Of a stretch of 64,000 nucleotides of DNA, positions 9,504 through 58,132 are shown piece by piece; position 1 is the stretch's first letter, and the number at the start of each line of letters is the position of its first letter. Position numbers and translations under genes: made by a program. Origin of the DNA: a virus (taxonomy: Duplodnaviria > Caudoviricetes); the IMG/VR virus record IMGVR_UViG_3300020577_009596, positions 1 to 64,000 of that record; one strand, given 5' to 3'. The notes beneath the pieces were generated by a model. The model did not search any database. It was given only the letters and a program-made list of their open reading frames with translations, and was not told the DNA's origin.

Positions 9504-9598
9504 CAGTCGTCTCCCATAACGACTTCCCTGAGAGGTAGGCTGAGGACAGAACAGCAGGGAATACTGTCTCTTCGGTAGCGAGCCTAGTCCTCAACCTA
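9504..9598 (-). ncRNA. Candidate cis-regulatory three-way-junction RNA plus RBS-occluding hairpin (copy 1)
   Basis: P1 UAGGUUGAGGAC/GUCCUCAGCCUA, UA-P2-GAA-GA-P3-CU junction; same architecture at 52146-52205 and 58083-58126. Confidence 0.6.
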
Positions 9599-9601
9599 AT
9601 C

Positions 9602-10069
9602 TTATAGCCGCGAGAGTCTCTGATACGGAACTGATTTGTTTAGAACTACCTCTGGGTAGAGAACTTCGGAATACGGATGGGGAGACGTCTTCATCCGCTC
9701 GAAGACACTTCTTCCCAAGTCGTGAGAGTTGTAGTAGTACGCATACTCGCTGTCCTCGCCCCGGCCGCCCTTCCCCTTGAAGACGACCCGCAGCTCGCTC
9801 GCGCCGGAGGAGAACGGGTTGCTCGACCCGCCCTCCCCGTACCGACGTCCGAACTTCCGCTGGAGGCTGTTCTCGCGGGCGTCGACGTACATGAACCGGG
9901 CGATGTGGCTCGTCGGCGGAGCCGTCACCCACTCCTCGGTCGGGGGAGAGGGCGTCTCGTTGAACGGTCGGTCCGACGGGATGCCCTGCTCGAACCGCGG
10001 GGACCAGCCGGTCTCCTGTCGGGGCAGCACCTCGCTCGTCGGCCGGTCCCACGGGTGTCTCTCGCTCAT
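9602..10069 (-). CDS. Hypothetical protein (weakly KTSC-like), with AT-richer replacement C-terminus
   Basis: TSHIARF.Y...ELRVVFK...EYAYY..VFERM pattern. Confidence 0.55.
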   Translation of the reverse strand: MSERHPWDRPTSEVLPRQETGWSPRFEQGIPSDRPFNETPSPPTEEWVTAPPTSHIARFMYVDARENSLQRKFGRRYGEGGSSNPFSSGASELRVVFKGKGGRGEDSEYAYYYNSHDLGRSVFERMKTSPHPYSEVLYPEVVLNKSVPYQRLSRL

Positions 10070-10103
10070 CGCGTCCTCCTGCCCGAATTATAGGTCCGAC
10101 GAG

Positions 10104-10964
10104 TCACTTGCGACCCTTCCTCGGCAGGTCGCCCTGACTGAACTCGCGGATCATCGCGTCGAGGGACCTCTCGTCGGGCGTGTCGAAGTAGCCGACCAGA
10201 TACACTCTCCCGCCCGACCGGAACAGGATCGCTGGATCGCCCTCGACGCGAGGGGGCTCCTTGGACGCGACCCACCGGTCGGGACTCGGACACCACAACA
10301 GGCCGAACTCGTCCCGCTCACGCTCGAGCCGCCCCTCGATCCCACGGTCGAGCAGGTAGACCCCGAACATCCTGCTGAACGCCTTCGCCTTCCGCATCCG
10401 GTCGAACATCTCGGATGTGATCCCGTCCGGATACTTGGTAGTGACGTAGACGCGGGTCCGGGAGTAGTGGACTCCGCCGACCCGCACCGGAGGCAGGTCG
10501 TACCCGCTCCGCTGGTTTGCGGAGTAGACCGACTCACGGGCGTTCCAGCCGGTGGCCTCGGAGTAGCGGCTTTGCCAGTCTCTCAGATCGTCCCAGACCG
10601 TGACGTACTCGGGCAGCTGGACGACCGTCTCGGTCTTCTTGGGCACGTAGTCGTCGGAGACGAGTCCCCTCATCACGACCTGGTCCGGTCGGCTCTCGTC
10701 CCGGCCGACGAGATAGCTCAGACTCCTCTGAGCGAACGAGAGGTCGATCGAGGCGTAGCGGGTCATCATCCAGCGGTACTCGGCCGCCGCGACCAGCCGC
10801 TCGCGGAGCGAGTCGCACTCCTCGGCGTTGAGACCGATGTCGCGAGCCTTCGCGGTCACCTCGCCGATCCTTTCCTTGAGCTGGTCGACGATGCCGGCGA
10901 GGTCATCCTCGCGAGGCTTCTCCGTCTGGGCGTCGACTACCGTGCGGAACTCAGCTGTCGTCAT
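10104..10964 (-). CDS. Hypothetical protein
   Basis: 286-aa ORF with phage-like codon usage and GGAG RBS. Confidence 0.65.
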   Translation of the reverse strand: MTTAEFRTVVDAQTEKPREDDLAGIVDQLKERIGEVTAKARDIGLNAEECDSLRERLVAAAEYRWMMTRYASIDLSFAQRSLSYLVGRDESRPDQVVMRGLVSDDYVPKKTETVVQLPEYVTVWDDLRDWQSRYSEATGWNARESVYSANQRSGYDLPPVRVGGVHYSRTRVYVTTKYPDGITSEMFDRMRKAKAFSRMFGVYLLDRGIEGRLERERDEFGLLWCPSPDRWVASKEPPRVEGDPAILFRSGGRVYLVGYFDTPDERSLDAMIREFSQGDLPRKGRK

Positions 10965-11202
10965 GGCATTCTCCCTGGGTTGGTGCTTCGGTCAGGTTCT
11001 CCAGCGTCTCCTCCAGGATCTGGTCGAGCCACTGACGGACGCACTCGGTCCCGAACCGCCGGACGACGGCGCGGACCATGAGGTTGCACTCGCTCTCCAC
11101 GAGCGGGCGGACGTTGGGGGCGATCTTGAGGATCGTCCGGAGCCTCTTGGCGGAGTCGGCCATGCGGCAGTCGTCGAGGCTCCGGTACGGGGCGAAGGAC
11201 AT
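10951..11202 (-). CDS. Hypothetical protein
   Basis: Start MSFAPY after GGAG RBS and GGTTATACT motif. Confidence 0.55.
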   Translation of the reverse strand: MSFAPYRSLDDCRMADSAKRLRTILKIAPNVRPLVESECNLMVRAVVRRFGTECVRQWLDQILEETLENLTEAPTQGECHDDS

Positions 11203-11239
11203 AGTGCGGTCTCCCTGGTGAGGATTTAAGTATAACCTA

Positions 11240-13345
11240 TCAGTCCGGCTTGATGCCGAGGGCGATCTCCGTGTCGCGGATCGAGGTCGTCCTCGCGTCC
11301 TCGCTCTCCGGCACGTCCCTGAGGGCCGCATCGACCTCCTGAATGCTCAGCCGGTGGATCCGGCAGCAGGTGTCGTCGATCCCGAGGGCGAGCCACCAGC
11401 TGCCGTAGGCGAGGACCGCCCCGCCCGGCCACACGACGTACCGCTTGACGACCGTCTCGTCGATCGCCGGCAGGTCCGGCCAGATCAGCGGCGTCGGGGT
11501 CTGGCGGAGGACCCGGTACGGCGGTCGCCCCTCCGTGACGAGGCAGCCGACCGTGTAGACCGTCCCCTGAGGCCGCTTCAGGGCACCGTGGAAGAAGTAG
11601 TACAGGACCTCGCCGTCCCCGAGGTCGATCCGGACCGGAGCCGCCCCGCCGCGAATCACCCCGCCGGTCCAGGGGAGGGGGTTCGGAGTCGCGTGGGTCG
11701 TGACGTCGGGGATCTCGTCGGACGGGTGTGAGAAGTCCCCCGGCTCGATCACGACGTGGTACGGCTTCCAGGCGTACGACCACTTCAGCTGCCGCTCGTT
11801 CGGGTCCCAGAACGGGATCCAGTTCTTCTCGTACAGGTTCCCCGGCGGGCTCTTGAACACCTCCGTGTGCTCGATCCGCTGGAGGTCCTCGCTGAACACG
11901 ACGTAGCCGACCTGGACCAGCTTCGGGGGGTAGCCGTCGGGCAGGTTGAACATCGAGCACAGCCGCCGCTCGGAGTCCGGGGTCGGCCAGGGCATCGTGA
12001 ACAGGCGGGGGTCCTCTAGCCGCGGGGCCTCCGGGTGGTCCGAGCCGACCGAGCTGACGGGCTCGCAGACCCACTCGGGGTCGTCGTAGGTGATGTGCTG
12101 GACGTCGGGGAGGCCTCCCTTGCCCTCGAGGCTGACGGCGTCGATCCTCGCCCCCCACTGGGGTAGCGGGCTCTTGAGGTCCCACAGGGCGACCTTGCTG
12201 TGCCCCCAGCTGTCGCGGGTCGCGAGGATCATCCGGCCCCGGTAGACGCACAGGCTCGGGTTGAAGTGCCCCTCGGGGAGCGGCAGGCGGGGCCGGACGC
12301 GGTCGGCGGGGGCCATCTCGGCGCGGAGCTCGCACGTCTCGCACGGGGTGGCGACGGCCTGGCGTCCGACCGCGTCGTTGAACGTGACCGGCAGGGACTG
12401 GCGGCGGCTGAAGCAAGGGCGGTTGAGGCGTGCGCACTGGTCGAGGGGGATCGACCGGCTCCCGACCGACCCGACGATCTCGAGGCTCTCGCCGCGGTAG
12501 ATGCACGGGAACGGGTCGGTCAGCCGGAGGCTCGCCGCGAGGACGTCCGCCGACTGCTCGACCGGCCGCTGCTCCCTCTTGGCCTCGGTCTCGACGTACC
12601 TCGCCGCGGCAGACGAGTCCCGGTCGGGGCCGTCCGCCTCGCTCACGGTCGACGGTGCCCACTCCGGCGTGCCCGTGCCCTCGTGGTCGTAGGTCCGCTG
12701 CCGGACGAGCGAGGGGAGCACCGCGCACCAGTTCAGTAGACCCCTGCTCAGGACCCGCTCGTACAGCTGCTGGTCGACGTTCCGCTCGGCGAAGGCCATG
12801 TTGTCGAGCAGGACCGGCAGGGCGCGGCGGCGGACCATGTAGGCGTGCGTCCCCCACGGCCACTCGAGGCGGCACAGGCGGGAACCCGGCGGCCCGATCC
12901 GCTCCGTGATCTTGTTCCAGACCCGCGGACCCTCCGGCTCGGCCAGGCCGAGGAAGACGAAGTCCCAGTCGGGGTTGTATTGGTTGAGTTGGTGGGAGAC
13001 CTCGCTCTGGATCGCTCCGAGAGAGGCGTGAGGAATGTAGACGTCGTCCTCCAATACGATCCAGGCGTCAATCGAGGTAAGGGATGAGCACTTACCCCCG
13101 CCGTACTGGGGAGGAAGGTTCAAGAGATGGTTCCACAGCGTCCAGTGGCCGAGCAGGAGGCCGACGTGGCCTGGGCTGATCCGCCGCCCGGCGTCGTACT
13201 CCCGGACGGTCTCGAGCCCCCACGTCTTGCCGTGGACGCTCCTCCACCAGACGGGGTCGACTCCGACGGACCGGAGGTGGTCGAGGCAGAGCTGCTTGCG
13301 ACGAGGGAGCTCCTCGCAGCCGAGAACGTACACAGGTAGGGGCAC
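11240..13345 (-). CDS. Glycosyltransferase family 25 fused to GH130/GH43-like beta-propeller glycosidase
   Basis: GHVGLLLGH..IVLEDD..GTHAYMV (GT25); FNPS..LEDPRL..EKNWIPF..RGGA..VVWPGG..GIDD (propeller). Confidence 0.75.
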   Translation of the reverse strand: MPLPVYVLGCEELPRRKQLCLDHLRSVGVDPVWWRSVHGKTWGLETVREYDAGRRISPGHVGLLLGHWTLWNHLLNLPPQYGGGKCSSLTSIDAWIVLEDDVYIPHASLGAIQSEVSHQLNQYNPDWDFVFLGLAEPEGPRVWNKITERIGPPGSRLCRLEWPWGTHAYMVRRRALPVLLDNMAFAERNVDQQLYERVLSRGLLNWCAVLPSLVRQRTYDHEGTGTPEWAPSTVSEADGPDRDSSAAARYVETEAKREQRPVEQSADVLAASLRLTDPFPCIYRGESLEIVGSVGSRSIPLDQCARLNRPCFSRRQSLPVTFNDAVGRQAVATPCETCELRAEMAPADRVRPRLPLPEGHFNPSLCVYRGRMILATRDSWGHSKVALWDLKSPLPQWGARIDAVSLEGKGGLPDVQHITYDDPEWVCEPVSSVGSDHPEAPRLEDPRLFTMPWPTPDSERRLCSMFNLPDGYPPKLVQVGYVVFSEDLQRIEHTEVFKSPPGNLYEKNWIPFWDPNERQLKWSYAWKPYHVVIEPGDFSHPSDEIPDVTTHATPNPLPWTGGVIRGGAAPVRIDLGDGEVLYYFFHGALKRPQGTVYTVGCLVTEGRPPYRVLRQTPTPLIWPDLPAIDETVVKRYVVWPGGAVLAYGSWWLALGIDDTCCRIHRLSIQEVDAALRDVPESEDARTTSIRDTEIALGIKPD

Positions 13346-13378
13346 GGCGAGTTCCTGAGGGAAAGGGTTATATCTTAA

Positions 13379-14185
13379 CTACTCCGGCATCACGAACTCC
13401 ACCCCCGGCCAATCCTCGCACTCCCACAGGTTCAGCGGGTTGCCGCGGCATGAGCATGGGGCTAAGTATCCATGTGCTTCCGACTGGTAAGTGCCCCGCC
13501 CATCGCACACGTCGCACTTCACGCGGTCGAAGCGGTAGCCATTGATGATGAAGTAGTCATCGGAACCTCCAGCCCAATAGCCTTCCGGCCACGTCGTCAG
13601 CCGCACCGTCTCCAGCGGTTGGCAGGAGGCCACGAACGGGCGTTGCACCTTGCCGGTGCCTCTCTTCCCTGTTCCCGACACGCCGCCGCATCTTTTGCAT
13701 TCCGCCTCTGAGCAGTCTGCGTATGCGCCATGCCCGCCACATTCGTCGCACGCCACAGTCTGCCTCGAGCTCCAAAACAGCCCGGCGTGGTGACGCAGCC
13801 AGGATGACCAATCGAGCGTGACGGATCGCAAAAAACCCCGCCGCCAATCGTCCGGGGTCGCAACGTGAGCCGGAAAGGTGTAGTCGGGAACGCCATTCTT
13901 CGGCCAATGCCAGAGGATAAGACTCCGGCTAGTGAGGTACTCGCGACGGCGCAGAACGCACACGTCGCCACGGCAATGTGCAGTAAAGTGGCGTTGCTTG
14001 TTCTGAACCTTCTCACATCGGTTGCACATGAGATTGCGGCGTCTCGCCAACTCGCACTGCACGCGGATGAACTCAGCCCGCTCAGCCTCCCCCGCCTCAT
14101 CCAGCCAGTCGGCATAGATGAGCCGGGGAAGGTCTTCCCGTGGGTTCTCGATGATGGAGCGGAGCAAGGCGTCACTCTGGTTCAT
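13379..14185 (-). CDS. TIGR02996-domain protein with CxxCxGxG zinc fingers
   Basis: ALLRSIIENPREDLPRLIYADWLDEAG..RAEFIRVQCEL. Confidence 0.85.
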   Translation of the reverse strand: MNQSDALLRSIIENPREDLPRLIYADWLDEAGEAERAEFIRVQCELARRRNLMCNRCEKVQNKQRHFTAHCRGDVCVLRRREYLTSRSLILWHWPKNGVPDYTFPAHVATPDDWRRGFLRSVTLDWSSWLRHHAGLFWSSRQTVACDECGGHGAYADCSEAECKRCGGVSGTGKRGTGKVQRPFVASCQPLETVRLTTWPEGYWAGGSDDYFIINGYRFDRVKCDVCDGRGTYQSEAHGYLAPCSCRGNPLNLWECEDWPGVEFVMPE

Positions 14186-14362
14186 CGCTTCCTCCGTGCT
14201 TGCTTCGCTATTGCAACCAGGCACCAGTAGACCATGAGTCGTCGCCGGTTCATGTTCGATCCCGATTGGGGTAGAAAAACTCCACGATCTTGATGATCAG
14301 CATGGCGGCCATGACTACCACAACAAGACCGCCGCTTATGACAGCCAGTAAACTTTCATCGC

Positions 14363-14965
14363 TCATAGCGTCTCCCCCTCCATCGCCACCGCCTTCCGCA
14401 GTGCGTCCAACTCGGCCTCGTCCTCCGGGGAGAGGGGTAGGGGCCGCCAGTGAGTTGGATTCCATGTGATGTCCCGAGGGTGCAACTTGAAGACGATGAC
14501 TTCTTCCCACTGAAGAACGCCGTCAACACTTCCGCAGGAACGCTTGGACGGCTTCATCGCACCGAACACCGGAACGCCACACTTGTACGCCATGAACAGC
14601 GACCCGTCTTTCGGTGCCGTCTCGATCGGCCGCCACCGCTCGTCCACCTCCACGCGGGTCAGCAGGTTACGGAGCCGAGCGTTCTCGGTTTCGAGGGTGG
14701 CAATCGTTGCGTCAGATCGGCCTCTTTCGGAAGCCGCCGCCAACGACTCTTCCTTGAGCCGGGTGACTTCGGCGAGGGCCGCATCGTGTTCAGCCCGCAG
14801 TGCGGTGGCTTCCTCGGCGGCGGCGAGCAGGGCGACATAGGCTTCGCGAGATACATTCCCGAACCGATAGTGGTAGTGCCCCTCGCCCGTGTCCATCCAC
14901 GGCGTTGAGTCGCTTGTGGCTCGCAACTCCGCGATCCGCTCCGGTGTCAGCGCGGTGTCACTCAT
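14363..14965 (-). CDS. DUF551-like phage protein with coiled coil
   Basis: WRPIETAPKDG...PTHWRPLP. Confidence 0.7.
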   Translation of the reverse strand: MSDTALTPERIAELRATSDSTPWMDTGEGHYHYRFGNVSREAYVALLAAAEEATALRAEHDAALAEVTRLKEESLAAASERGRSDATIATLETENARLRNLLTRVEVDERWRPIETAPKDGSLFMAYKCGVPVFGAMKPSKRSCGSVDGVLQWEEVIVFKLHPRDITWNPTHWRPLPLSPEDEAELDALRKAVAMEGETL

Positions 14966-15240
14966 GACGTTCCTCCGTGTAGTTCGTTGAACAATGCCGT
15001 GTCGTTCGCGACGCACGCTTCCAACTCCGCCACCCGCTCACGCAGGCTCGCGATCTCCTCGGCTTGCCGCCGCACCTCGGCCACGAGAGCGAGGCATGTC
15101 TCGCGGTCGAATCGCACCACAGGCTTGATCCCGTGCTTAGCAAGCCACTTCGCGTCCGCCCCGCACGGCTGCTCTTCTGCCACTCGCTCCAACTCGCTCA
15201 GCGGGATCACGCGGCCGTCCGCCGTGATGGTGTCGCTCAC
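14962..15240 (-). CDS. Ead/Ea22-like protein
   Basis: FDRETCLALVAEVRR, shared with 22223..22831. Confidence 0.5.
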   Translation of the reverse strand: MSDTITADGRVIPLSELERVAEEQPCGADAKWLAKHGIKPVVRFDRETCLALVAEVRRQAEEIASLRERVAELEACVANDTALFNELHGGTS

Positions 15241-15430
15241 TTCATTGCCTCCATGAATGCAGAGACTCCGAGAAGAACACCCATCGCCAGAAACGTGGGC
15301 ACGAGTATCCACGACAGGATGCGAATCGACCGCCAAGAGTCATGAGTCGCGTCGTACAGATTCTTGGCAGCGGCAAGCCCGCATATCAGACTGCCGAAGG
15401 CGAACACGACGACATCAGGCTGTGTGGTCA

Positions 15431-15700
15431 CTACTCGCTCCTGTTGAGAATCGCTGCGGCAAGCGCGGCGGCCGTGACTGACTTGTGCCACTGAATGCGT
15501 CCGTCAAACTCGGCCCCGTCACGCATGAATGTTTGCTCTCTTGCCCGTCGCATATCAGCTTCGTCGCTACACACCTTCGCACACGCCTTCCTCTCAGCAC
15601 GCACAGCCGCGTCGATGGCCTGTCGCAGCCGGTCGCGAGCATCGTAATACAGGGCAGTCCGAATAACCCGCAGGTGCCGGTCCAGTTCGTCGTCGCTCAT
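15431..15700 (-). CDS. Hypothetical protein
   Basis: AVRAERKACAKVC...AAAILNR motif common in small phage proteins. Confidence 0.55.
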   Translation of the reverse strand: MSDDELDRHLRVIRTALYYDARDRLRQAIDAAVRAERKACAKVCSDEADMRRAREQTFMRDGAEFDGRIQWHKSVTAAALAAAILNRSE

Positions 15701-16185
15701 GATGCGTTGCCCTCTCCACGACTGATCGCAAGGTCTTCCAGAAACAACACAAACGACACTCGCAATTCGTCGTCTCGCGTGGTGCTTAGCAATTTCTCAG
15801 CAATCGCGATGCACTTCGCGGTTCGCTCAAGGTGCATGTTCCCACGATTGAGGCTGGACACCTCGAACAGCAGACCACGCAAGGCTTGCAGTTCATCCCA
15901 CCTGTCCTCCGGCCAGTTCAGCGTCACCTTCATCTCAGCACCCTCCACAGCACCCACGCCGCCAACCCGATCCCACAACACCACGCGGCGGCGATGACCG
16001 TGGCGAGCGTGTATAGCCGTTTCATGATGCCCGCCTGACTTCAGACGCTGAGCCATCTCATACGCTTCATCCAGCGGCCACGACGCAAGGCAAGACGGCG
16101 GATGCCACCAACCGCGAAGGTTTTGCAGCCATCCGCCTTCGATCAGGTACAGGACCTTTTCTTCGCCCGTGATAGTCGCCATCAC
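15697..16185 (-). CDS. Hypothetical protein (may be two merged small ORFs)
   Basis: ORF downstream of GGTTATACT motif; internal RBS and ATG near 15933. Confidence 0.4.
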   Translation of the reverse strand: MMATITGEEKVLYLIEGGWLQNLRGWWHPPSCLASWPLDEAYEMAQRLKSGGHHETAIHARHGHRRRVVLWDRVGGVGAVEGAEMKVTLNWPEDRWDELQALRGLLFEVSSLNRGNMHLERTAKCIAIAEKLLSTTRDDELRVSFVLFLEDLAISRGEGNAS

Positions 16186-16233
16186 TTCACCTCCGTCAGT
16201 GGCTGCATACGCGGCATCCAGTTTAAGTATAAC

Positions 16234-18231: not shown

Positions 18232-18249
18232 ACCGCTAGTCTAGCGGTT

Positions 18250-18459
18250 CTAGAAGATCATCCAATCGATCGGATCGTCCTCCGAGGTGATCGTCGCGAC
18301 GAGGTACTCCTTGAGGATCTCCTCACTGATCATCTGCCAGCCCTCGCAAGACTCGTCCCCGCACCGACACGGGAACGCTCGCCTCCCAGTCGCGTGGAGC
18401 TGCTCGACGGTCTTCCCAGACCGTTCGGCGTAGCCCTGCTCGAACTCGTCAAGCGTCAT
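18250..18459 (-). CDS. Hypothetical Cys-rich protein
   Basis: EFEQGYAERSG...PCRCGDESCEGWQM. Confidence 0.6.
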   Translation of the reverse strand: MTLDEFEQGYAERSGKTVEQLHATGRRAFPCRCGDESCEGWQMISEEILKEYLVATITSEDDPIDWMIF

Positions 18460-25445: not shown

Positions 25446-25523
25446 GTCCTTCTCCTCGGTTTGAGTCGGGAAGCCCTACCTTTCACGACCCGACGACGTA
25501 TATTAACCGCTTAAGGAGGCCCT

Positions 25524-48807: not shown

Positions 48808-49423
48808 GTTCGCTCCTCTTCTTAGCAGACTCACTGAGTTTTCGACGGTGCTCAGCCGAGCAAGCCTTACCTTTTCTAGGTGGATTTGTCACGTTCCTGA
48901 CGGCAGCTCGCTCAGCAGACTTCTTACGACACAACTCGCTAGGCTTACGCCCTCTCAACGACTCACTGATCAACTTCTTCGTCTCTTCTGAGAGTGAGGA
49001 TCCTCGGCGTATAGTATTACCCTTCATTCTCTCTGACCTACGGGATCTCTCGTCGTCCGACACTTTACGGTTCTTCGCTGCTTCGCTTATCCGACGTAGT
49101 CCGTCCTCAGTATGCATGCCTTTAAACCCGCCGACGCCGGTCGCCGTATTGAACTTCGGCTTGAGAAGAGCTATCAGCTCTCGCTCTCTAGTTTGAGCTT
49201 GTTCGTCAGTATCAAACGGTTCGATCGACCATTCGATCGCATACCTGTCAGTTTCGAGTATCGCAACGAGACCGGGCGGTCTACCAGACCATGATGACTT
49301 GCCTGTAGGACGACCGCGGTTCCCGCGACCCTTACCTACCCATAGAACGTCTTCACCGATTCGCCACACGTACACGTACGGCTGCTTAGGGTCTTCGAGA
49401 GGTCTCTTTCTAGGCGTCGGCAT
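48779..49423 (-). CDS. GIY-YIG homing endonuclease with NUMOD3 repeats
   Basis: YVY..WVGKG...E.ELI..FN; HTED/SEETKKLIS repeats. Confidence 0.8.
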   Translation of the reverse strand: MPTPRKRPLEDPKQPYVYVWRIGEDVLWVGKGRGNRGRPTGKSSWSGRPPGLVAILETDRYAIEWSIEPFDTDEQAQTRERELIALLKPKFNTATGVGGFKGMHTEDGLRRISEAAKNRKVSDDERSRRSERMKGNTIRRGSSLSEETKKLISESLRGRKPSELCRKKSAERAAVRNVTNPPRKGKACSAEHRRKLSESAKKRSERASQVPKHQ

Positions 49424-49477
49424 AGTTAAACCTCTAGCCACCTCTATAGTAACCAGAAAGTTTAACTGAAACCAATT

Positions 49478-51577
49478 TTATAGCTTGAGTCTCCGGTGCT
49501 CGTCTCGGTCCCAGCTCGTCGGGCAGTACCCGACCGACACACGCAGCGGGACCCCGACGTCCTCGCCGCTCCGCTCCATGAGACGCTGGAGGCGGCGGGC
49601 CTTGGGAAGGTTCCGACGACCGCCCGCGGGCATCTGGAAGACGATCTCGTCGTGGACCTGGAGCGCGATCGTCGCGTCGAACCCGTCCCGACGCCACTCG
49701 CTCAGCTGCTCCTCGCAGCGGATCATGGCCTTGCTCGTACACCACATCGCGGTGGACTGGACGTGGTAGTTCAGGGGGAGCGTAGGGCTTATCCTACCCC
49801 ACTCCGACCGCGAGCACATCACGGGGTAGCCCCTGGCGGACCCGATCGACCGGTCGGGGATCGTCTCGACGTACCCGTGCCGGTTGGCGAACGAGACCCA
49901 CCGGTCCATCAGGGCGAACAGCTTGGTCAGTCGTCCGCGGATCAGGCCGTACGCTCCCGGCTTGTGGGCGGTGGTGTCGAACTTCTTCTCCATGCAGCCG
50001 TAAATCAGGGCGAACCCGGCGTTCTTACACCACTTGTACCAGGTCGACTCGTACCGTCGCTTGAACTCCCCGCGCTGGTCGGCCAGCGGCCAGAACAGGT
50101 CGGGATACATCGCGCTCGCGTTGAGCAGGTGGTACGAGCCGAAGTACGGCGGGTCGTCGGGCCGCTCGAACAGCTCGATCATCGCCTCCTCCTCCGACTC
50201 GTAGCCGGGGATCCGGAGCTCGATGTTCTCGTAGTCCATCGGCCACCACTCGTATCCCGGCGGCGGCCCGAACCCGTAGCGGAGGTTGAACCCCTCCTTC
50301 TTGCTGATGTTCTGCTCGTTCGGGTTCGAGCTGCTGAACCGCAGCGTACCCGTCCCGGTCGCGTTCAGGTTTGGATTGAGACGACAGGTATCCCCGTCGT
50401 TGAGAGGAACCCAGAACCGCCGGTACCCTTCCATGTACTGGACGGCCGTGTCCCGGCTCCGCTTGTCTCCTATTGCCTTTACGAAGTCGAGCTGCGGTCC
50501 TTCAGTCAGAGTCTCGACATAGGTCTGCATAGCCTCCTTGTTCAGGCTCGGCGACCCGCTGTCGGTCCTCGCCGCGATCGGGAGGGCGAGGTACTGCCGA
50601 CCCTTCCCGAGCGTACCGGGGACCTTCTTCCCCCGCTCGTCCCGCAGCGAGTCGCCGAAGCAGAAGTGGAGGAGACTGTCGTTGTTGCCGGACTTCGGGA
50701 GGTCGAGGTCGTACCCGAGCGAGGCCGCGATCTCCCGGCAGCGGTCACCCAGGTCGGCCCCCTCCCGCGAGTACCGGACGACCATCTCCTCGAGACGGCT
50801 CCGGCTCAGCGTGACGCCCCGCCGCTCCATCCCGAACACGACCGGTAGCAGCCTCCGCCGCTCCTGATAGATCTCCCAGAGGCCCCGCTCCCTCAGCCTC
50901 CGCTCCATGACCGGCCAGAGCATGACCGTCGACTCGGAGTCCTCGTTCGCGTACTGGGCCGTCACCGTCCGGTACGGGTGGTCCATCGGCAGCTTGTGGC
51001 GGTTCGCGTAGGCACGGGGCAGCCAGGTGTCCAGCTTCCACGGGCTCTCGTCCTCGCCGCCCTTCGCCCGCTTGGCCTTGTTCGCCTTGCAGGAGGGCAT
51101 GTCGGCCCGGCCCTCCTTGGCGAGAGCCCAGGTCGGGTGCTCCCGGCGGACCCTCCCCCGGACCTCGACGACGACGTCCCGCATCCGCTTCTCGGACGGC
51201 TCTATGTCGATCCCGAGATAAAACAGGACCATATCGGTCAAATTGTGAGGTTGATTACTAGCTAACAGATGTCCAGCTAGTAAGGTGTCCTCTACCTTCT
51301 CCCAATATGTGTCTATGTTAACCAGATCCCACAACCCTATCGAGTCGAGAGCGTGAGTATCGAAGCCGATGTTTTGACCTACGATTCGTTCTTGCTTTGT
51401 CAGCAAATCAGCAATCTTGACTAGGTCTTCTTGAGGGATATTCGGGGTTCGGGTGATCGGATTTACCGGCCAATCCCAAAACACAGGGTCTTTACCGTAC
51501 TCACATGTCGTCACGAGGAACGGCCTCGCCCCATGCCTCCAGTCAGACCCCGTAGTTTCACAGTCCAAAGCCATCAT
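49478..51577 (-). CDS. DNA polymerase family A with 3'-5' exonuclease
   Basis: LDCETTG, QNIGFD, TGTLRFSSSNPNEQN, DYENIELR, KNAGFALIYG, VHDEI. Confidence 0.95.
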   Translation of the reverse strand: MMALDCETTGSDWRHGARPFLVTTCEYGKDPVFWDWPVNPITRTPNIPQEDLVKIADLLTKQERIVGQNIGFDTHALDSIGLWDLVNIDTYWEKVEDTLLAGHLLASNQPHNLTDMVLFYLGIDIEPSEKRMRDVVVEVRGRVRREHPTWALAKEGRADMPSCKANKAKRAKGGEDESPWKLDTWLPRAYANRHKLPMDHPYRTVTAQYANEDSESTVMLWPVMERRLRERGLWEIYQERRRLLPVVFGMERRGVTLSRSRLEEMVVRYSREGADLGDRCREIAASLGYDLDLPKSGNNDSLLHFCFGDSLRDERGKKVPGTLGKGRQYLALPIAARTDSGSPSLNKEAMQTYVETLTEGPQLDFVKAIGDKRSRDTAVQYMEGYRRFWVPLNDGDTCRLNPNLNATGTGTLRFSSSNPNEQNISKKEGFNLRYGFGPPPGYEWWPMDYENIELRIPGYESEEEAMIELFERPDDPPYFGSYHLLNASAMYPDLFWPLADQRGEFKRRYESTWYKWCKNAGFALIYGCMEKKFDTTAHKPGAYGLIRGRLTKLFALMDRWVSFANRHGYVETIPDRSIGSARGYPVMCSRSEWGRISPTLPLNYHVQSTAMWCTSKAMIRCEEQLSEWRRDGFDATIALQVHDEIVFQMPAGGRRNLPKARRLQRLMERSGEDVGVPLRVSVGYCPTSWDRDEHRRLKL

Positions 51578-52116
51578 AGAAGATTCCTCCAAGTCCTTTT
51601 CTTGACAGCGTCTGCTAAAGCATGTTCAGAGACTTTGGGCTTAGTTACGGCGTAGATACGCGAAATAGACCATCCTTTCGAGTACAAGAATCTAGCTATT
51701 TTGACTTGTTCCTCGGTCATCCTCGCGTTGCCGTTCGCCGCCCCAGGACAAGGAGTACCCGTACCGGCTCTACTTTGACGTCCCTTTGACACCATGTCGT
51801 CAGAATTATCTTGGACCGTACCTTGGAATAAGTGATCCGGTCTCACGCAGCGGGGGGTGTCGCATTTATGAAGAACGAACAGCCCCGACTTGATGACATT
51901 CCCGGTTAGTTCGTAGGCTATCCTATGTGCTTTCTTTTCCCTGAAATGTCCGTAGCCGTTGACGGTGGCTGCGATCCACACCCAGCACTTACCGTGAACC
52001 GGATGGATTGGACCGTTCTCCTTATCTACTCTCATCCAGAACAGTCGCTCAACGTCAGTACCGCGATTGTTGGAGTGCTTCGAGAACTCTCCACGAACGT
52101 AGACACCCTTCGGCAT
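51574..52116 (-). CDS. HNH homing endonuclease
   Basis: CWVW..GYG..KAHR..LHKCDTPRCVRPDHL..DN. Confidence 0.9.
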   Translation of the reverse strand: MPKGVYVRGEFSKHSNNRGTDVERLFWMRVDKENGPIHPVHGKCWVWIAATVNGYGHFREKKAHRIAYELTGNVIKSGLFVLHKCDTPRCVRPDHLFQGTVQDNSDDMVSKGRQSRAGTGTPCPGAANGNARMTEEQVKIARFLYSKGWSISRIYAVTKPKVSEHALADAVKKRTWRNLL

Positions 52117-52205
52117 GACTCCGCTCCTTCAGCGGTCCTTAAGAGTTGGTGACGGCAGGCGAGTAAGGTTCTCGCTCTTCGACTGGCCGGTCTAGCCGTC
52201 ACCAA
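52117..52205 (-). ncRNA. Candidate three-way-junction RNA plus RBS hairpin (copy 2)
   Basis: P1 UUGGUGACGGC/GCCGUCACCAA, UA-GAC..GUC-GAA-GA-GCGAG..CUCGC-CU. Confidence 0.65.
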
Positions 52206-52221
52206 TATCATAGCGTACTCG

Positions 52222-52398
52222 TCACGCCTTGCCCTCGAGATTCCGCTCTCCGGTCCCGCCGCACCTCTTGCACTTCGTATTGTTCGGCGTCCGCCCCAGC
52301 CCGTCGCAGGTCGGGCACGGCCAGAGCGGGAGCTTCCTCTCGGCCTCGGGCTTCGGCTCGGGGGACGGCTTGGGAGGGAAGTGACGGAACGGGGGCAT
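52222..52398 (-). CDS. Small DnaJ-type zinc-finger protein
   Basis: MPPFRHF...CPTCDGLG...CKRCGGTG. Confidence 0.6.
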   Translation of the reverse strand: MPPFRHFPPKPSPEPKPEAERKLPLWPCPTCDGLGRTPNNTKCKRCGGTGERNLEGKA

Positions 52399-52555
52399 AG
52401 CGTACCCGACGTGAGTTGAGAGGCGTCTGACGCAGGCTGGTAAGTACTTTCGAGGTCTAGAACTCCCGCCAGTTCCTGCGTCAGACATGGGTAGGGCGTC
52501 CGTGCCCCGAGGACTCCTGTCAGCCGTCCGTGAACGTGTGAGCCATCGCCCGGAT

Positions 52556-53689
52556 TCACGCCGGGACCGACAGCTCGCTGAACTTGATGCCCTTCACGAC
52601 CGCCTTGGTGTCCGACCGCTTGGCCGTCACCGTCTCCGTCTTGGCGTCGACGCCGGTGATCTCGACCTCGACGGCCTTCTTCAACGGCTTCTTGGTCTTG
52701 GGGTCGACCGGGAACCACTCGTACACGTCGCCCTTCGCCGGGACCGGGGGAGCCTCCTCCGCGGCCTCCCCGCCACCCTCTCCGGACTGCCGGGCCTCGA
52801 TCAGGTCGGCCGCCGCCCCGAAGTTGGGGGTCGCGCCCCACTCCTCCTCGCTGATGCCGAGGGCGAGGGCGATGTCCTGGAGCTTCTGGACCGCGCCGTC
52901 ATCGCCGTTCTCGGCCATCGTCGCCAGCTCGCGGACGTCGTCGGGCAGCTCGGCCGCCTCGGGCTCGGGGGCGGGTGCCGGAGCGGGCTTGGACGCCGGA
53001 GGCTTCGCGGGGGACTTCGCCGCCGGGGGCGGAGCGGGCTTGGTCGGAGGGGCCTTGCCGGTGTCGTCGGTCGTGCCGGGGGTCGGACCCTCGGGCGGCG
53101 GCTCGTACCCCTCCATCCCGCGGGTGCCGTACCAGTTCTCCCAGACGCGGGGGTTCGGGTACTGGGGCGTCGGCTCGCTCTGGCTCGTCTCGAACTTGAA
53201 GTGCGGGGCCGCTTCCTGCAGCATCGCCGCGATCCCCTCCAGGGCCGCAGCCCCCTGCTCGAACTCCGAGTTGGGGACGCCGAACCGCTTCATCTCGTTC
53301 TCGATCCGCTCGATGTTGGCCTCCATCGAGGTGATCTCGCCCTTGGCGTTCTTCGTGTCGATCACCGGGATCATGATCGAGGTCTGGAGCCCCTTGACCG
53401 TGATCTTGCGTCCGTCCTTGTCGACGATGTGGTCGGGCTCGACCACCACCCCGACCGCCCGGAAGTAGTACTCGCCGACGGCCGAGGAGCCGTCGACCTT
53501 CTTCATGTTCGAGCCCTCCTTGTAGGTCTCGAACGCCATCGTCACCAGCCGGGCCACGCCGTTCTTGATCCCGCCGGGGATCTGCTGGAAGCCGTACGAC
53601 ACCTCCTTCCCGCTGGCCTGCTTCGCCGCCGCGTCGAGCCGCGAGCCGTACTTCTTGAACAGTCCACCGCCGCCGGTCTGCGTCGCCAT
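52556..53689 (-). CDS. Putative ssDNA-binding/replication protein
   Basis: Position between AAA ATPase and PolA; OB-like N-terminus, Pro/Ala linker, acidic region. Confidence 0.5.
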   Translation of the reverse strand: MATQTGGGGLFKKYGSRLDAAAKQASGKEVSYGFQQIPGGIKNGVARLVTMAFETYKEGSNMKKVDGSSAVGEYYFRAVGVVVEPDHIVDKDGRKITVKGLQTSIMIPVIDTKNAKGEITSMEANIERIENEMKRFGVPNSEFEQGAAALEGIAAMLQEAAPHFKFETSQSEPTPQYPNPRVWENWYGTRGMEGYEPPPEGPTPGTTDDTGKAPPTKPAPPPAAKSPAKPPASKPAPAPAPEPEAAELPDDVRELATMAENGDDGAVQKLQDIALALGISEEEWGATPNFGAAADLIEARQSGEGGGEAAEEAPPVPAKGDVYEWFPVDPKTKKPLKKAVEVEITGVDAKTETVTAKRSDTKAVVKGIKFSELSVPA

Positions 53690-53746
53690 TCGTCGCCTCC
53701 TCACTCAGGTGATTGGATAGATAGTTATACCGTTACCCCGGCCCCG

Positions 53747-53992
53747 TCAGCTCGGGGTGAGGTTGACGATCTTGCGGATCTCGTAGCCGTACTCCCTCAT
53801 CTCCTCCTCGTCGTACAGCCCGACGGCCGTCGGCGAGTAGTCTCCGTCCTTCTTGAGCACCGCCTCGGTCGCCTCGACCCGACCCACCGCCTTGCCAACG
53901 GCAAGGCCGTTGCGGTCCGCGTTGAGGACGACCGTCGCCTCCGGGGGGAGCGTCCGGAGACGCTCGATCAGCTCGATGACGGTCACGGTCAC
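53747..53992 (-). CDS. Hypothetical (MTV.ELIE.L..LPPE family)
   Basis: Same N-terminal motif as 55495..55875. Confidence 0.6.
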   Translation of the reverse strand: MTVTVIELIERLRTLPPEATVVLNADRNGLAVGKAVGRVEATEAVLKKDGDYSPTAVGLYDEEEMREYGYEIRKIVNLTPS

Positions 53993-54084
53993 TCCCCGTA
54001 CACGAGGCCCTTGATCTTGTCGTACGACGGGTCCTCGACGTACTCCGGCAGCTCGCTCCCCTTGGGGATCCGGAACTTCGTCAG
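53989..54084 (-). pseudogene. Stranded original 3' end of the AAA ATPase gene
   Basis: [31 protein letters not shown] versus current LTKFRLPKGIELPEYLEDPSYEKVMNLVTG*. Confidence 0.9.
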
Positions 54085-54623
54085 TCCTTGACATGCTTCC
54101 ACTGCTTCCTCTTACCAATATTGGCAACTTGAACTCGAGATATCCCGAACTTCTCAGCTAGCTTCTCAGCGGTTCCCGGTTTGTTAGGAGCCTTTCCAAC
54201 TCTGAAGTGCTTACGAATGTACCTGACATCGTCTTCCGTAAGCCTAGCCAGATTGTGTTCAATTCCCTTCTTACCGCGAGATCCGTAGTTGAATCTTCCT
54301 TTCTTGATACAGTCGTGAATATTGTCTCGGTAGGTCCCTAGAAATAAATGCTTGGGATTAACGCAGGCCGGATTATCACAGGTATGACATACGAGCAGCT
54401 TCCTGCTTCGGCTCCGGTCTTCCAGCTCTGGTCGAGTTCCGTAATGAAGTATCCAGCTGTAGACCGGAGCGTAATAGACCCTTTTGTTAACCGAAATGTA
54501 TCCTCTTTTGTTGGTGGCTTCGGTCGGCTTCCACCACCAACAACCTTTGGTTTTCCTCACTCGAGCCCAGAATCGAACTTCTGGAGGAACTGTCTTGTCG
54601 TGGTCCTTGAAAGTAATCTTCAT
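54081..54623 (-). CDS. HNH homing endonuclease
   Basis: [32 protein letters not shown]. Confidence 0.9.
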
Positions 54624-54671
54624 CCCTAGCCTCCTTTTAAGACGCTACGATGAAGTTTACTATAAACTTCG

Positions 54672-55541
54672 TCACCCAGTTACGAGATTCATTACCTTTT
54701 CGTATGAAGGGTCTTCGAGATACTCAGGTAACTCGATCCCTTTTGGAAGCCTGAATTTCGTCAGGAAGGTGTCGTGCGGGGCGGTCCGGAGACAGTACAC
54801 CACGCCGGGCACCCGCTCCTGCGACCGCATCTCCTTACCCCCGATCGTCCGGACCCGCTCCTCCGTCCGACCCTTCTTGAACATCTGGACCACGAAGTCG
54901 CACGCCGGGGCGAGCCACCCCGCGACGGACGGGCTCAGTGCCGCGCCGACCGTCGGCCGGAGCAGGTCCGGGTCGCCGCCGTCCTCCCGGCCTCCGAACG
55001 TCCGCTGCTGGGCGACGATCACGACGTTCGCGTCGAGGTTGAGGAGGGCGCGGAACAGGGTCTTGAGCTGCAACGCCTGCTGGCCGTACTGCTGCTGGCT
55101 CGCCATCCCCCAGCCCTTCTGGGCCGGGATCTCGTCGAGTCCGAGGATCTCCTTCAGGGCGTCGTCGGCCAGCCCGCTGGCGTGGTCGAGCACGACCGTC
55201 TGGAACTTGCCCGTCTGCCGGACGTGCTCGCACAGCTCCTTGACCTCGTTCGTCTGCCGGAGGACGACCTTCGTGATCTTCCCCCGCTCGGAGTGGGGGA
55301 CCGACTGGAGCTCGCCGGGACGCATGCTCCCGCTGCTCACGATCCACAGCACTGGGCCGGGGAACGTCGAGGCGAACACGGTCTTGCCGCTTCCGCTCTC
55401 GCCGTACACCAGCATCTTCATCGGGCCGACCGAGTCCTCGACGGGCTCGAGACGGCTGAGCACCGGGCCGTCCATCGACGGTCGCGGGCGGGTCTCAGTC
55501 TTGGTCACGACCGGGGCCGTGGCCCTCTTCAGCGGGGGCAT
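54672..55541 (-). CDS. AAA_24/Sak4-like ATPase
   Basis: LVYGESGSGKT, TVVLD, VVIVA. Confidence 0.8.
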   Translation of the reverse strand: MPPLKRATAPVVTKTETRPRPSMDGPVLSRLEPVEDSVGPMKMLVYGESGSGKTVFASTFPGPVLWIVSSGSMRPGELQSVPHSERGKITKVVLRQTNEVKELCEHVRQTGKFQTVVLDHASGLADDALKEILGLDEIPAQKGWGMASQQQYGQQALQLKTLFRALLNLDANVVIVAQQRTFGGREDGGDPDLLRPTVGAALSPSVAGWLAPACDFVVQMFKKGRTEERVRTIGGKEMRSQERVPGVVYCLRTAPHDTFLTKFRLPKGIELPEYLEDPSYEKVMNLVTG

Positions 55542-55875
55542 TCAGCTCCTCCTTGGGTTCTGGGTCCTTGTGGGCTCGGATCATCATCGGCCGCCAGTTC
55601 TGACAGCCACAGGACTCGGAGTAGACCTGCAGCTTCTCCTTGCCGCAGTACTGGCACCGCCACATGACGGGCTTCGGCTCTGCGGCCCTCTGGGCGGGCG
55701 TCGGCTCGACCTCGTACTCGCTATCTCCAATACGCAGCTCGACGTGCTCGACGCCGTTCCACTCTTTGACGACGTCCACCTGAGGAGTCCATAGTCCCCA
55801 CTCACAGTCGTCAACCGCTACTCCCATCTCAGGCGGTAGGGTCTTCAGCTTCTCGATCAGCTCTGCTACGGTCAT
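55495..55875 (-). CDS. Hypothetical protein with Zn-ribbon
   Basis: MTVAELIEKLKTLPPE; CQYC..CGC. Confidence 0.6.
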   Translation of the reverse strand: MTVAELIEKLKTLPPEMGVAVDDCEWGLWTPQVDVVKEWNGVEHVELRIGDSEYEVEPTPAQRAAEPKPVMWRCQYCGKEKLQVYSESCGCQNWRPMMIRAHKDPEPKEELNAPAEEGHGPGRDQD

Positions 55876-56092
55876 CTTCGACCTCCGGGTTAGGGTTGCT
55901 TCGGCTTGGGTGGAATCAGTCCGTCCTCGGACAGCTTCTTGTGGAGCCAGTAGTACAGGCCGACCAGCTCGTCCTCTCCGAGGATCATCTCGAGGTGGTC
56001 GTCCGAGTCGTACAGGGTCGCGTCGGCGAACCCGCCGCCCTCGGCCTGAGACGTGAACGACCCTCTCAGGTCGCCTCCGATCACCTCGTAGG

Positions 56093-57385
56093 TCACGACT
56101 TCAGCTCCCCGAACAGCTCGGCCGACCGGACCAGGCCCGCGGTCGAGCCGTTGTCGACATACTCGTCCATGTCGGAGGCCCCGTACTCGTCGATGGTGTT
56201 CGCCGCACCGAACGGGTGCCGCCAATGTAGGCGGTTGTCGTGAAGGTCCCACGGCGAGCAGTCTCGGACTAGACACGCCTTGATCATGTCGTACCAGTCG
56301 CACATCTGCTCGAGGATCGGGTCGAGGCACTCGCGGCGGAACCGCTCGACGTCCCCCGGCCGGACCTCCGCCCGCCATCGGCGGAAGAAGTAGTTCTCGT
56401 CCTCGCGGACCTCCCACTCGGGGCCGGTCGCGTTGCGGATCACCTCGGCGAGGCGGGCCTGGAACTCGGCGTCGGTCTCCGGCGGCTTGGCCCCGACCCG
56501 GCAGGCCCCCTCGCACTTCGGGCAGACCGTCTCGACCTTCGTCCGCTTGTCGGTGAACCGGCCGGTCGCGTCGCACTTGGAGCACTTCGCCCCCTGCGTG
56601 CCCTTCCCCTGCGTGATGCTGCCCTTGCCGCCGCTGAGCGGACGCCGGACGACGTTGTAGCGGACGCCTTTGATGTTTCCTCCGCCAGCGAGGATATGAG
56701 GCTCAAGTATCTCTCTCGCAGCTACCCACTCTGGGGACGGGTCGGACTCTCCTCCGCAACAGCTGAGAGCGACAAGATACATCATCGTCTGCAGGTCCCA
56801 CGTCAGGTTCCGCTGGATCTCGACCTCGTCGACGTCCCCCTTCGTCTTGGTCTCGAACAGATAGACTCCCGCCTCTCGGCCGGTCCCGACTAGGTCGACC
56901 GCGTCGAACTTGCCTCGCAGCCGGACGACGCGACCGGACGGCAGCCGGTACGGGACGTCGAACGGGTACTCCTGTAGGAGCGGCGTCCGCTCGACGACCT
57001 CGGGGTGCTCCCGCCACCACTCGACGTAGATCGGGAACTGGGTCTTGCAGACGCCGTACCAGTGAGTGATCTCGGGCGACTGGAACGGATACTTCTTGAT
57101 CAGGTCGCGGCAGAAGTCCAGCAGCTTGGGCTGCCAGTCCCTGCCCGCGGCGAGGGCCTCCTCACAAGTATGCCACATATCTCCGTACGACATACGGAAG
57201 TGGAACTTGTCGTGAGGTTTCCACCCTTCTATGTACTTGACTCGAAATCTCTCTCGACAAGAAAGCCACGATTTTATGGCTGATTGAGTTACTCCTGAGT
57301 TAGGACCTTCCCCACAAGGGCCTCCCCACAGAGGGCGTTTCTCCTTAGGCTTGACCTTTGCCAGTATCTCTCTCAGCTTGCTCAT
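56093..57385 (-). CDS. PD-(D/E)XK (RecB/Cas4-like) exonuclease with inserted zinc finger
   Basis: QSAI..W.SC, RGKFD, FETKT, QTMMY; CSKC..CPKC insert. Confidence 0.85.
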   Translation of the reverse strand: MSKLREILAKVKPKEKRPLWGGPCGEGPNSGVTQSAIKSWLSCRERFRVKYIEGWKPHDKFHFRMSYGDMWHTCEEALAAGRDWQPKLLDFCRDLIKKYPFQSPEITHWYGVCKTQFPIYVEWWREHPEVVERTPLLQEYPFDVPYRLPSGRVVRLRGKFDAVDLVGTGREAGVYLFETKTKGDVDEVEIQRNLTWDLQTMMYLVALSCCGGESDPSPEWVAAREILEPHILAGGGNIKGVRYNVVRRPLSGGKGSITQGKGTQGAKCSKCDATGRFTDKRTKVETVCPKCEGACRVGAKPPETDAEFQARLAEVIRNATGPEWEVREDENYFFRRWRAEVRPGDVERFRRECLDPILEQMCDWYDMIKACLVRDCSPWDLHDNRLHWRHPFGAANTIDEYGASDMDEYVDNGSTAGLVRSAELFGELKS

Positions 57386-58043
57386 TCTGCTTCCTCAGAA
57401 ATTTAAGTCTTGCTTCTCTCATTTTGTTACGAGATGCTTCTGATCTTTTGCCGCATGCGTTCTTGTTACCTTTCGACTTCTCCGCTAGTATCGCCTTAGT
57501 CTGCTCAGAATGAGACCTACCCGTCAAGGCAATACTCAGATTTCTCTTGAAAGTATCGGTGTAGCCAATAGCTTGTCTCGCTGCTCTGGCTCTTTGTAAC
57601 GCTTCAGCTTGTCTTACGCTCAGCTTCCCTTTCCTTATCGCTGATAGCCTTGCTACGAGTTCTGGAGGTTGCTTTCTGCCTCTGAGTTTTTCTGAAACTG
57701 TCTTACAGAACTCTTCTGTAGGTTTTCTCCCTAAAGCACTTCCTGCCGTAGGGCAGATATTATAACCTTTAACCGTTGCTTCCGTTTTGTCTATCCAGAA
57801 CTGCTCACGAGAAATACAACTCGAAGGAGAACAGTATTCTAGGACAGAGAACTCAAATACCGGACCATATTTGTTCCACGCAGCCTGAAGATGTCTGTTA
57901 TGATGGTGTCCTCCTCTAAGGGTTTGAAAGTGAGACCTTTTCCGGTGCTTGAGAGACTTAGCGGCCGACCCGATATAGAATTTACCGTTCAGAACATTTC
58001 TGATGATGTAGACGCCGGTATTGAAATGCTTAAACGGTGGCAC
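57345..58043 (-). CDS. GIY-YIG homing endonuclease with NUMOD3
   Basis: GVYIIRN..FYIGS..R...H..N.HLQAAWNKYG..REQFWI..GYNI. Confidence 0.9.
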   Translation of the reverse strand: MPPFKHFNTGVYIIRNVLNGKFYIGSAAKSLKHRKRSHFQTLRGGHHHNRHLQAAWNKYGPVFEFSVLEYCSPSSCISREQFWIDKTEATVKGYNICPTAGSALGRKPTEEFCKTVSEKLRGRKQPPELVARLSAIRKGKLSVRQAEALQRARAARQAIGYTDTFKRNLSIALTGRSHSEQTKAILAEKSKGNKNACGKRSEASRNKMREARLKFLRKQNEQAERDTGKGQA

Positions 58044-58132
58044 CGAGGTCACTCCGCTAGTGACTCCGCGAGTAAGAAGGTTGTGGCAACCGGCGCGGGA
58101 CCGGCTTTCGGGTGCCCCCTAGCCACGCTTCT
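58044..58132 (-). ncRNA. Candidate three-way-junction RNA plus RBS hairpin (copy 3)
   Basis: GUGGC-UA-GGG GGCA CCC-GAA-AG CCGG..CCGG UU-GCCAC. Confidence 0.55.

Follow-up and report, generated by a model that had tools for sequence, protein, structure and literature searches.

The Window and Its Nuclease Genes

The sequence considered here is IMG/VR record IMGVR_UViG_3300020577_009596, a linear phage contig of 101,556 bp that is 82% complete and has a GC content of 65.7%. The stretch analysed, referred to below as the window, is its first 64 kb. The minus strand of the window carries two HNH_3 endonuclease genes and one GIY-YIG homing endonuclease gene, and directly upstream of each of them lies an RNA element folded as a three-way junction. 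These three elements (copies 1, 2 and 3) are divergent members of a catalogued orphan Rfam family, int-alpA (RF02996), and do not represent a new RNA class. They were first noticed in an original prediction made from the sequence alone, which described one covarying RNA placed as a leader in front of selfish nuclease genes, and the position of the elements agrees with that description. The genes are as follows:

8979–9503, minus strand: HNH_3 endonuclease gene, 174 aa (PF13392, E 3.5e-13; PHROG endonuclease families), after copy 1
51574–52116, minus strand: HNH_3 endonuclease gene, 180 aa (Pfam, PHROG), paralogue of the gene at 8979–9503, after copy 2
57345–58043, minus strand: GIY-YIG homing endonuclease gene (PF01541, E 9e-13; PHROG homing endonuclease), after copy 3

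The three endonucleases had been called unrelated. They do belong to two families (HNH twice, GIY-YIG once), but the two leader-bearing HNH proteins are paralogues with 37% identity (E 3e-31). The longest open reading frame (ORF) of the GIY-YIG gene, 57345–58052, starts at GUG 58052, which lies within the 3' arm of the leader hairpin P4 (see below); judging by the spacing usual in the RNA family, GUG 58043 is the more probable start of the gene.

Structure of the Three Junctions

Inspection of the minus strand confirmed all three junctions, with the coordinates and sequences originally reported for them. Their parts, listed in the direction of the RNA, are:

9536–9598, minus strand: copy 1 three-way junction (sequence reading, descriptor, R1 model)
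9598–9587 with 9547–9536, minus strand: copy 1 helix P1, followed by UA at 9586–9585
9584–9574, minus strand: copy 1 hairpin P2, 2 bp, followed by GAAGA at 9573–9569
9568–9550, minus strand: copy 1 hairpin P3 with its loop L3, followed by CU at 9549–9548
52146–52205, minus strand: copy 2 three-way junction (RF02996, R1, minimum-free-energy fold)
52205–52195 with 52156–52146, minus strand: copy 2 helix P1
52192–52181, minus strand: copy 2 hairpin P2, followed by GAAGA at 52180–52176
52175–52159, minus strand: copy 2 hairpin P3 with L3
58083–58126, minus strand: copy 3 three-way junction with a short P1 of 5 bp (RF02996 below threshold, R1, minimum-free-energy fold)
58119–58110, minus strand: copy 3 hairpin P2, followed by GAAAG at 58109–58105
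58104–58090, minus strand: copy 3 hairpin P3 with L3

All copies share one layout, in which P1 leads through C-UA-G into the P2 hairpin, C-GAA and two purines separate P2 from the P3 hairpin, and two pyrimidines connect P3 to the returning strand, P1'. A strict descriptor of this layout (P1 with 5 bp or more, C-UA-G, P2, C-GAA plus 2 nt, P3 with 4 bp or more, 1–3 nt, P1') matched exactly these three sites when both strands of the entire 101,556-bp record were scanned; applied to 589 kb of unrelated phage loci, it gave one spurious match. The minimum-free-energy fold given by RNAfold is the junction itself for copies 2 and 3 (copy 2, z −4.9), while for copy 1 only P1 and P3 are recovered, because its weak P2 consists of two pairs only (GG/CC). 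The U-G and G-U wobbles, found in P1 and P3 of copy 1 and in P3 of copy 3, are compatible with the minus strand only, as had been proposed. A check for tRNA-like RNA or tmRNA found none. An alignment of the three copies alone with MAFFT misplaced copy 3 and was discarded.

Membership of the int-alpA Family

In a cmscan search of the window against Rfam 15, a single match exceeded its gathering score: RF02996 (int-alpA), on copy 2, with 48.3 bits where 35.8 are required. Copy 3 was matched by the same model below that score (27.8 bits, E 5.7e-4 in a local search), and copy 1 gave no match to it at E ≤ 10. The original prediction had placed the junction in no named Rfam family and had offered it as new unless cmscan were to match it to an existing one; such a match is what was found, and the claim of novelty falls with it. 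Of 15 descriptor-positive loci from other phages that were checked, 11 pass the Rfam cut-off and four lie below it. The phage studied here shows that the model misses divergent members, and the int-alpA family is larger than catalogued.

For an assessment independent of this phage, a pattern scan of IMG/VR yielded 80 foreign loci and, from these, about 66 descriptor-positive elements. A covariance model (R1) was built from an alignment of 53 distinct foreign phage instances, none of them from the phage studied here. Searched with R1 with filters switched off, the 64-kb window returned the three copies as its top three matches, at 54.9 bits (copy 2), 28.7 bits (copy 1, E 3.5e-5) and 19.5 bits (copy 3, E 0.0085), the next match scoring 11.9. 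When the three copies are included (57 aligned sequences), the CUAG and CGAA columns are without a single change, as the original prediction had it from three sequences. The helices vary in a coordinated way: 98% of cells are paired (a share raised by the manner of selection, see below), double changes occur at 13 of the 15 pairs, and the covariation score of 0.632 was reached in none of 500 shuffles (shuffled score 0.126) and falls to 0.04–0.07 when partners are slid against each other. That the three copies belong to one covarying RNA family is thus borne out.

Another characteristic of RF02996, a 3' tail with the consensus AAgGG that can pair with the CCuU consensus of the P3 loop, recurs in all three copies, with loop–tail complements of 7, 5 and 5 bp. 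The integrase and AlpA genes that gave the family its name have no counterpart here: neither PF00589 nor PF05930 matched anywhere in the 101.5 kb record (82% complete). Genomic context does not enter into the Rfam model. Rfam assigns RF02996 the type 'Gene; sRNA', and the motif is reportedly one of the 224 surveyed by Weinberg et al. in 2017. A literature search found no paper on the function of the int-alpA motif, and the main text of the survey (PMC5737381) does not mention it. What is new at this locus is the presence of three divergent int-alpA members, two of them under the Rfam cut-off, in an apparently lytic phage of high GC content.

Loop L3 and Its Two Complementary Sites

The segment between each junction and its gene contains two short sites complementary to L3, the apical loop of P3. 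The first is named box A; the second is the Shine-Dalgarno (SD) box. The tails of all instances were read for these sites, and box A was found about 22–29 nt and the SD box about 11–13 nt upstream of the start codon. In total, the comparison took in about 60 phage and 24 bacterial instances. The corresponding features of the three copies are:

9524–9530, minus strand: copy 1 box A, CAGGGAA, 7-bp complement of L3 UUCCCUG (9561–9555), duplex −9.8 kcal/mol
9506–9523, minus strand: copy 1 hairpin P4 (GUCGU / ACGAC), −5.6 kcal/mol, with SD box UGGGAG in its loop
52137–52141, minus strand: copy 2 box A, UAAGG, 5-bp complement of L3 CCUUA, −4.3 kcal/mol
52121–52135, minus strand: copy 2 hairpin P4 (CCGCU / AGCGG), with SD box GAAGGAG spanning loop and 3' arm
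58066–58070, minus strand: copy 3 box A, CGCGG, 5-bp complement of L3 CCGCG, −9.0 kcal/mol
58048–58064, minus strand: copy 3 hairpin P4 (GUCAC / GUGAC), with SD box GCGGAG (58057–58052) in its loop

The complementarity is specific to each element. A loop fits its own tail better than foreign loops do in both tail windows (42 distinct loops; none of 2000 permutations in either case), and both sites are present for 18 of the 42 loops compared with 2.8% of mismatched loop–tail combinations. Two related loci, L135 and L139, differ in L3, in box A and in the SD box, and the three changes compensate one another. The loop and box sequences of the three copies in this phage are mutually orthogonal. 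In each copy the complement between L3 and the SD box is 4 bp long, and the predicted pairing of L3 with box A is the more stable one in all three (copy 1, −9.8 versus −6.6 kcal/mol; copy 2, −4.3 versus −3.9; copy 3, −9.0 versus −7.9).

The 5' arm of P4 follows directly after box A, the SD box lies in the P4 loop, and the 3' arm ends 2–5 nt before the start codon. The P4 arms that flank the SD box also covary (none of 2000 permutations), so that covariation extends to every pairing in the layout. A hairpin that buries the ribosome-binding site (RBS) had been predicted after each junction, with the repression of T4 endonucleases such as I-TevI as the model. The hairpins are real, but the SD bases lie mainly in the loop and not in the stem, and the telling feature of these leaders, which takes the place of RBS occlusion of the I-TevI kind, is a P3 loop complementary to both a decoy box and the SD box. 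Spacing is constrained as well: P1 can be anything from 5 to 12 bp long, yet box A lies 13–17 nt from the junction in 35 of 51 instances. P1 length and linker length in copies 1–3 add up to 17, 15 and 17 nt.

Copy 1 shows a peculiarity in this region. An AUG in its P4 loop opens a 4-codon mini-ORF (AUG GGA GAC GAC UGA; window 9501–9517, minus strand), the stop codon of which shares bases with the start codon of the HNH gene (UGAUG), and box A stands at SD distance from the mini-ORF AUG. Translational coupling of the mini-ORF and the HNH gene is possible.

Position of the Putative Promoter

A hexamer resembling a −10 element precedes each junction closely:

9601–9606, minus strand: copy 1 −10-like hexamer TATAAG, overlapping the stop codon TAA (9604–9602) of the upstream gene
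52207–52212, minus strand: copy 2 −10-like hexamer TATGAT, 10 nt past the stop codon of the upstream gene (TGA 52224–52222)
58133–58138, minus strand: copy 3 −10-like hexamer TATAGT, overlapping the stop codon TAG (58136–58134) of the upstream gene

These hexamers end 13, 11 and 10 nt ahead of the C of CUAG in copies 1, 2 and 3, respectively, and two of the three (copies 1 and 3) overlap the stop codon of the preceding gene. The same arrangement is seen across the family, as TANNNT hexamers in 64 instances cluster 9–13 nt upstream of CUAG and are nearly absent farther upstream. From this placement we infer that transcription starts at the first bases of P1, and in copy 3 at the first base of P1. 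Near the copies, the minus strand has a single terminator-like call, at 58091–58079, which belongs to P3 and P1 of copy 3; calls of this kind are just as numerous as expected from shuffled sequence.

Lone SSTATAAT-like −10 elements without a −35 box also occur just upstream of other genes in the window, at 1446, 10094, 59371 and 62129 on the minus strand and at 25497 and 49008 on the plus strand. Their recurrence suggests that the phage relies on −10-only promoters.

Genes Downstream of int-alpA Leaders

The element is present at three of the five endonuclease genes of this phage. The other two are the HNH_3 genes at 54081–54623 and 84234–84761, the latter outside the window; their leaders were checked for a permuted or degenerate form of the junction, and only simple hairpins were found. 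Lone −10-like hexamers (TATAGT and TATACT) are present at these two genes, in window 54624–54700 (minus strand) and in G000:C1:84085-84233 of the full record (plus strand), and the hairpin loop in the leader of the 84-kb gene holds CCACCUCC, which is complementary to a downstream GGAGG.

To see which genes follow the element elsewhere, Pfam families were tallied for 58 non-redundant genes located behind the foreign phage-contig instances. Nucleases make up about 12 of the 58 (about 20%), comprising HNH_3 (five), HNH/HNH_5 (three), MUG113/T5orf172 (two) and DUF4379 (two). The remainder includes Rha (five) and DUF1376 (three), as well as KilA-N, P22 antirepressor, Dam and integrase; replication genes are also represented, and many of the genes have no family. 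Conversely, the closest IMG/VR homologues of the three endonucleases, 108 loci in total, lack the leader, and one descriptor match among them was spurious. The element, which the original prediction had linked to selfish endonucleases, is therefore not specific to them: given the mixed cargo and the leaderless endonuclease homologues, it is better described as a general leader of phage accessory genes that is often used by nuclease genes.

The family also reaches beyond phage contigs, with about 24 true instances in bacterial genomes of many phyla (Pseudomonadota, Acidobacteriota, Planctomycetota, Bacteroidota, Nitrospirota and others), which display the same double-box design. L149, an unrelated viral contig with an int-alpA leader, carries in addition a Proteo-phage-1 RNA (2653–2735, minus strand; RF03044, 69 bits) beside a tRNA gene.

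Cassettes and Their Possible Mobility

The GC content of the cassettes is 0.475–0.52, compared with 0.585–0.68 in their flanks. In three relatives found via the DNA polymerase (L111–L113) the flanking gene order is kept, the HNH and GIY genes are absent from those junctions, and RF02996 gave no match. By these sequence comparisons, the putative promoter, the leader and the nuclease gene together make up a cassette of low GC content that related phages do not have at the corresponding gene junctions. The relatives are distant (41–46% amino-acid identity), and for this reason the exact cassette borders cannot be drawn.

Nine other IMG/VR contigs (L114, L119, L123, L136, L165, L167, L168, L184 and L192) share a module of about 125 nt that begins with the −10-like element, stops just short of the start codon and is 94–100% identical among them, while the upstream flank and the nuclease ORF differ. 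The module is followed by an HNH_3 ORF in L114, L119 and L184 and by different ORFs in the six other contigs, and a second int-alpA leader heads the next gene. This distribution argues for a portable promoter–leader unit. Contigs from four sequencing runs covering positions 49000–60000 contained no joint that skips a nuclease cassette and are uninformative on mobility; the identical phage is present in two of these runs, which may represent the sample that it came from. A megablast search of the 50–60 kb region against phage GenBank records returned no match.

Proposed Function

With moderate confidence, the best explanation of these features is that each element is a promoter-proximal, cis-acting int-alpA leader that throttles or controls the initiation of translation. 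Each would form the 5' end of its own small transcription unit, with the parts arranged in a fixed order: the −10-like hexamer, the junction from about +1, a stretch of 13–17 nt made up of the 3' strand of P1 and a linker, box A, P4 with the SD box in its loop, and the start codon of the nuclease gene. L3 could either mask the SD by a loop–loop contact or rest on box A, a decoy with which its pairing is slightly more stable, and in this way the leader would set a low or conditional rate of translation initiation. A potentially harmful nuclease would then be kept throttled independently of its genomic neighbourhood. The cis-regulatory role envisaged in the original prediction is in keeping with this anatomy, which points to control of translation in cis.

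Several observations weigh against this explanation. The pairing of L3 with the SD box is only 4 bp long here and always weaker than that with box A; the leader may thus be 'on' by default, with a toggle that perhaps never operates. A pure anti-SD model also leaves the invariant UA, GAA(A/G)(A/G) and CU/UU unaccounted for, bases that hint at a tertiary fold or at the binding of a factor. Two HNH_3 genes of the same phage, those at 54 and 84 kb, do without the element. A sigma-70 scan with two hexamers calls no promoter upstream of any copy, which leaves the transcript start a matter of inference. Finally, the sequences compared were selected with a pattern and a descriptor that requires pairing; this raises the percentage of paired cells given above but does not affect the variety of pair types.

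An antisense RNA acting in trans has been considered as an alternative, and we regard it as unlikely. The junction would be released from the leader as a stable small RNA by termination or processing, and L3 would then pair with box A and the SD of other transcripts, each copy serving as the private repressor of its own nuclease. A single loop with two target boxes, and three copies with mutually orthogonal loops and boxes, would suit such a function, as would the sRNA type given by Rfam; a U-run stands right after P1 in some family members, the tail of the Rfam consensus is U-rich, and genes for Rha, antirepressors or KilA-N proteins are frequent downstream, which recalls the c4-icd-ant operon. 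The precedents are P1/P7 c4 RNA, P4 CI RNA and Gifsy-1 IsrK (PMC4825925, PMC5499578, PMC8201110). Yet P1 is followed by neither a U-run nor a terminator in any of the three copies, the constrained distance of 13–17 nt between junction and box A is better suited to an intramolecular fold, and the C4 RNA model (RF01695) has no match in this genome, whether at E ≤ 10 in the whole record or at the gathering threshold in the window. The junction bases, invariant while all stems vary, could instead be the mark of a sensor, that is a riboswitch or protein-binding leader in which a ligand or protein on the junction decides whether L3 pairs with box A or with the SD. A three-way junction combined with a pseudoknot and an SD is a layout typical of translational riboswitches. 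A metabolite ligand is difficult to reconcile with the functional heterogeneity of the controlled genes, and a candidate protein would be the product of a gene two genes upstream of copy 3 (58515–59681, minus strand; 388 aa with a C-terminal CsrA domain, PF02599 E 3.6e-17, PHROG 'CsrA-like regulator'). All six boxes of this phage contain GGA, the core of CsrA recognition, at intervals of 13–15 nt, but the boxes of most family members lack it (for example, GACGA or GAACAUGA), and homologues of the CsrA-domain gene are also found in the relatives L111 and L112, which are leaderless. A sensor appears quite unlikely.

The junction might also do nothing other than cap the transcript, keeping 5'-end-dependent RNases away from the mRNA 5' end and insulating the gene from its surroundings, with no switching involved. 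Its stems are stable and the predicted start at the first bases of P1 would give a base-paired 5' end, but a simple hairpin would suffice for this purpose, and neither the invariant junction nor the covarying complementarity of L3 to two boxes is explained; a passive role is, in our view, improbable. A self-cleaving or processing ribozyme, or else a homing or recombination site at the DNA level, is very improbable. Recombination at the leader could be reflected in the module of about 125 nt that stands before different nuclease ORFs, but the G-U wobbles and the strand-specific covariation indicate a single-stranded RNA of the sense strand of the gene. Self-cleavage, one of the activities suggested originally, finds no echo in Rfam, where no ribozyme model matched at the gathering threshold in the window or at E ≤ 10 around copies 1 and 3. 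We also take the junction loops, from a reading of their sequence, to be unlike the cores of hammerhead, twister and hatchet ribozymes.

A wider and more tentative generalisation can be made, which we consider possible but somewhat doubtful. The int-alpA leaders may be portable, programmable, self-targeting throttles of translation in which a single conserved scaffold presents a loop of freely variable sequence, able to switch from a decoy box to the SD of the gene that follows and back, and the module may be swapped among selfish nuclease, antirepressor and other accessory genes across many bacterial phyla; such leaders might also act in trans, in the manner of P1 c4 and P4 CI, or sense a factor via the junction. 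This one genome holds three natural versions that are orthogonal to one another, and each precedes a nuclease gene; together with the covariation of the family they provide a concrete model that can be tested by mutation. The model bears on how selfish endonucleases and other risky accessory genes are held at low expression, and concerns an orphan RNA that is widespread.

Comparison with Known Systems

The closest relative is the int-alpA motif itself (RF02996), with which the three elements share the junction P1-C UA G-P2-C GAA(A/G)(A/G)-P3-CU-P1' and the tail complementary to the P3 loop. They differ from it in that copy 1 has a long P1, a P2 of 2 bp and a larger L3, and copy 3 a P1 of 5 bp, both scoring below the cut-off. 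The phage differs from the setting that named the family, being apparently lytic, of high GC content (65.7%) and without an integrase or AlpA gene, and the cargo here consists of homing-endonuclease genes.

In phage T4, leader hairpins of endonuclease genes such as that of I-TevI sequester the RBS; the SD is enclosed in a stem that forms only in early read-through transcripts, and a late promoter lies inside the structure. The likeness to the present case is that the leader RNA of a phage homing-endonuclease gene is structured and presumably limits translation. An SD paired in a stem and a promoter inside the structure were found at none of the three copies. Here, the −10-like element precedes the entire fold, the SD sits in the loop of a hairpin, and the masking partner would be the distant loop of a conserved three-way junction.

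Similarities also exist to the P1/P7 c4 RNA, the P4 CI RNA and IsrK of Salmonella Gifsy-1. In these systems, as here, a promoter-proximal structured RNA is located in the leader of the genes that it controls (or, in the present case, would control), one of its loops is complementary to two sites on its own transcript, one of them at the ribosome-binding site (PMC4825925, PMC8201110, PMC5499578), and the cargo is often an antirepressor-type gene. The two complementary sites with which P4 CI RNA pairs are known as seqA and seqC (PMC4825925, PMC5499578, PMC8201110). The c4, CI and IsrK RNAs differ in being excised by RNase P, in acting in trans and in having at least one target upstream of the RNA, whereas the boxes of the int-alpA leaders described here are both downstream of the junction, at a fixed short distance.

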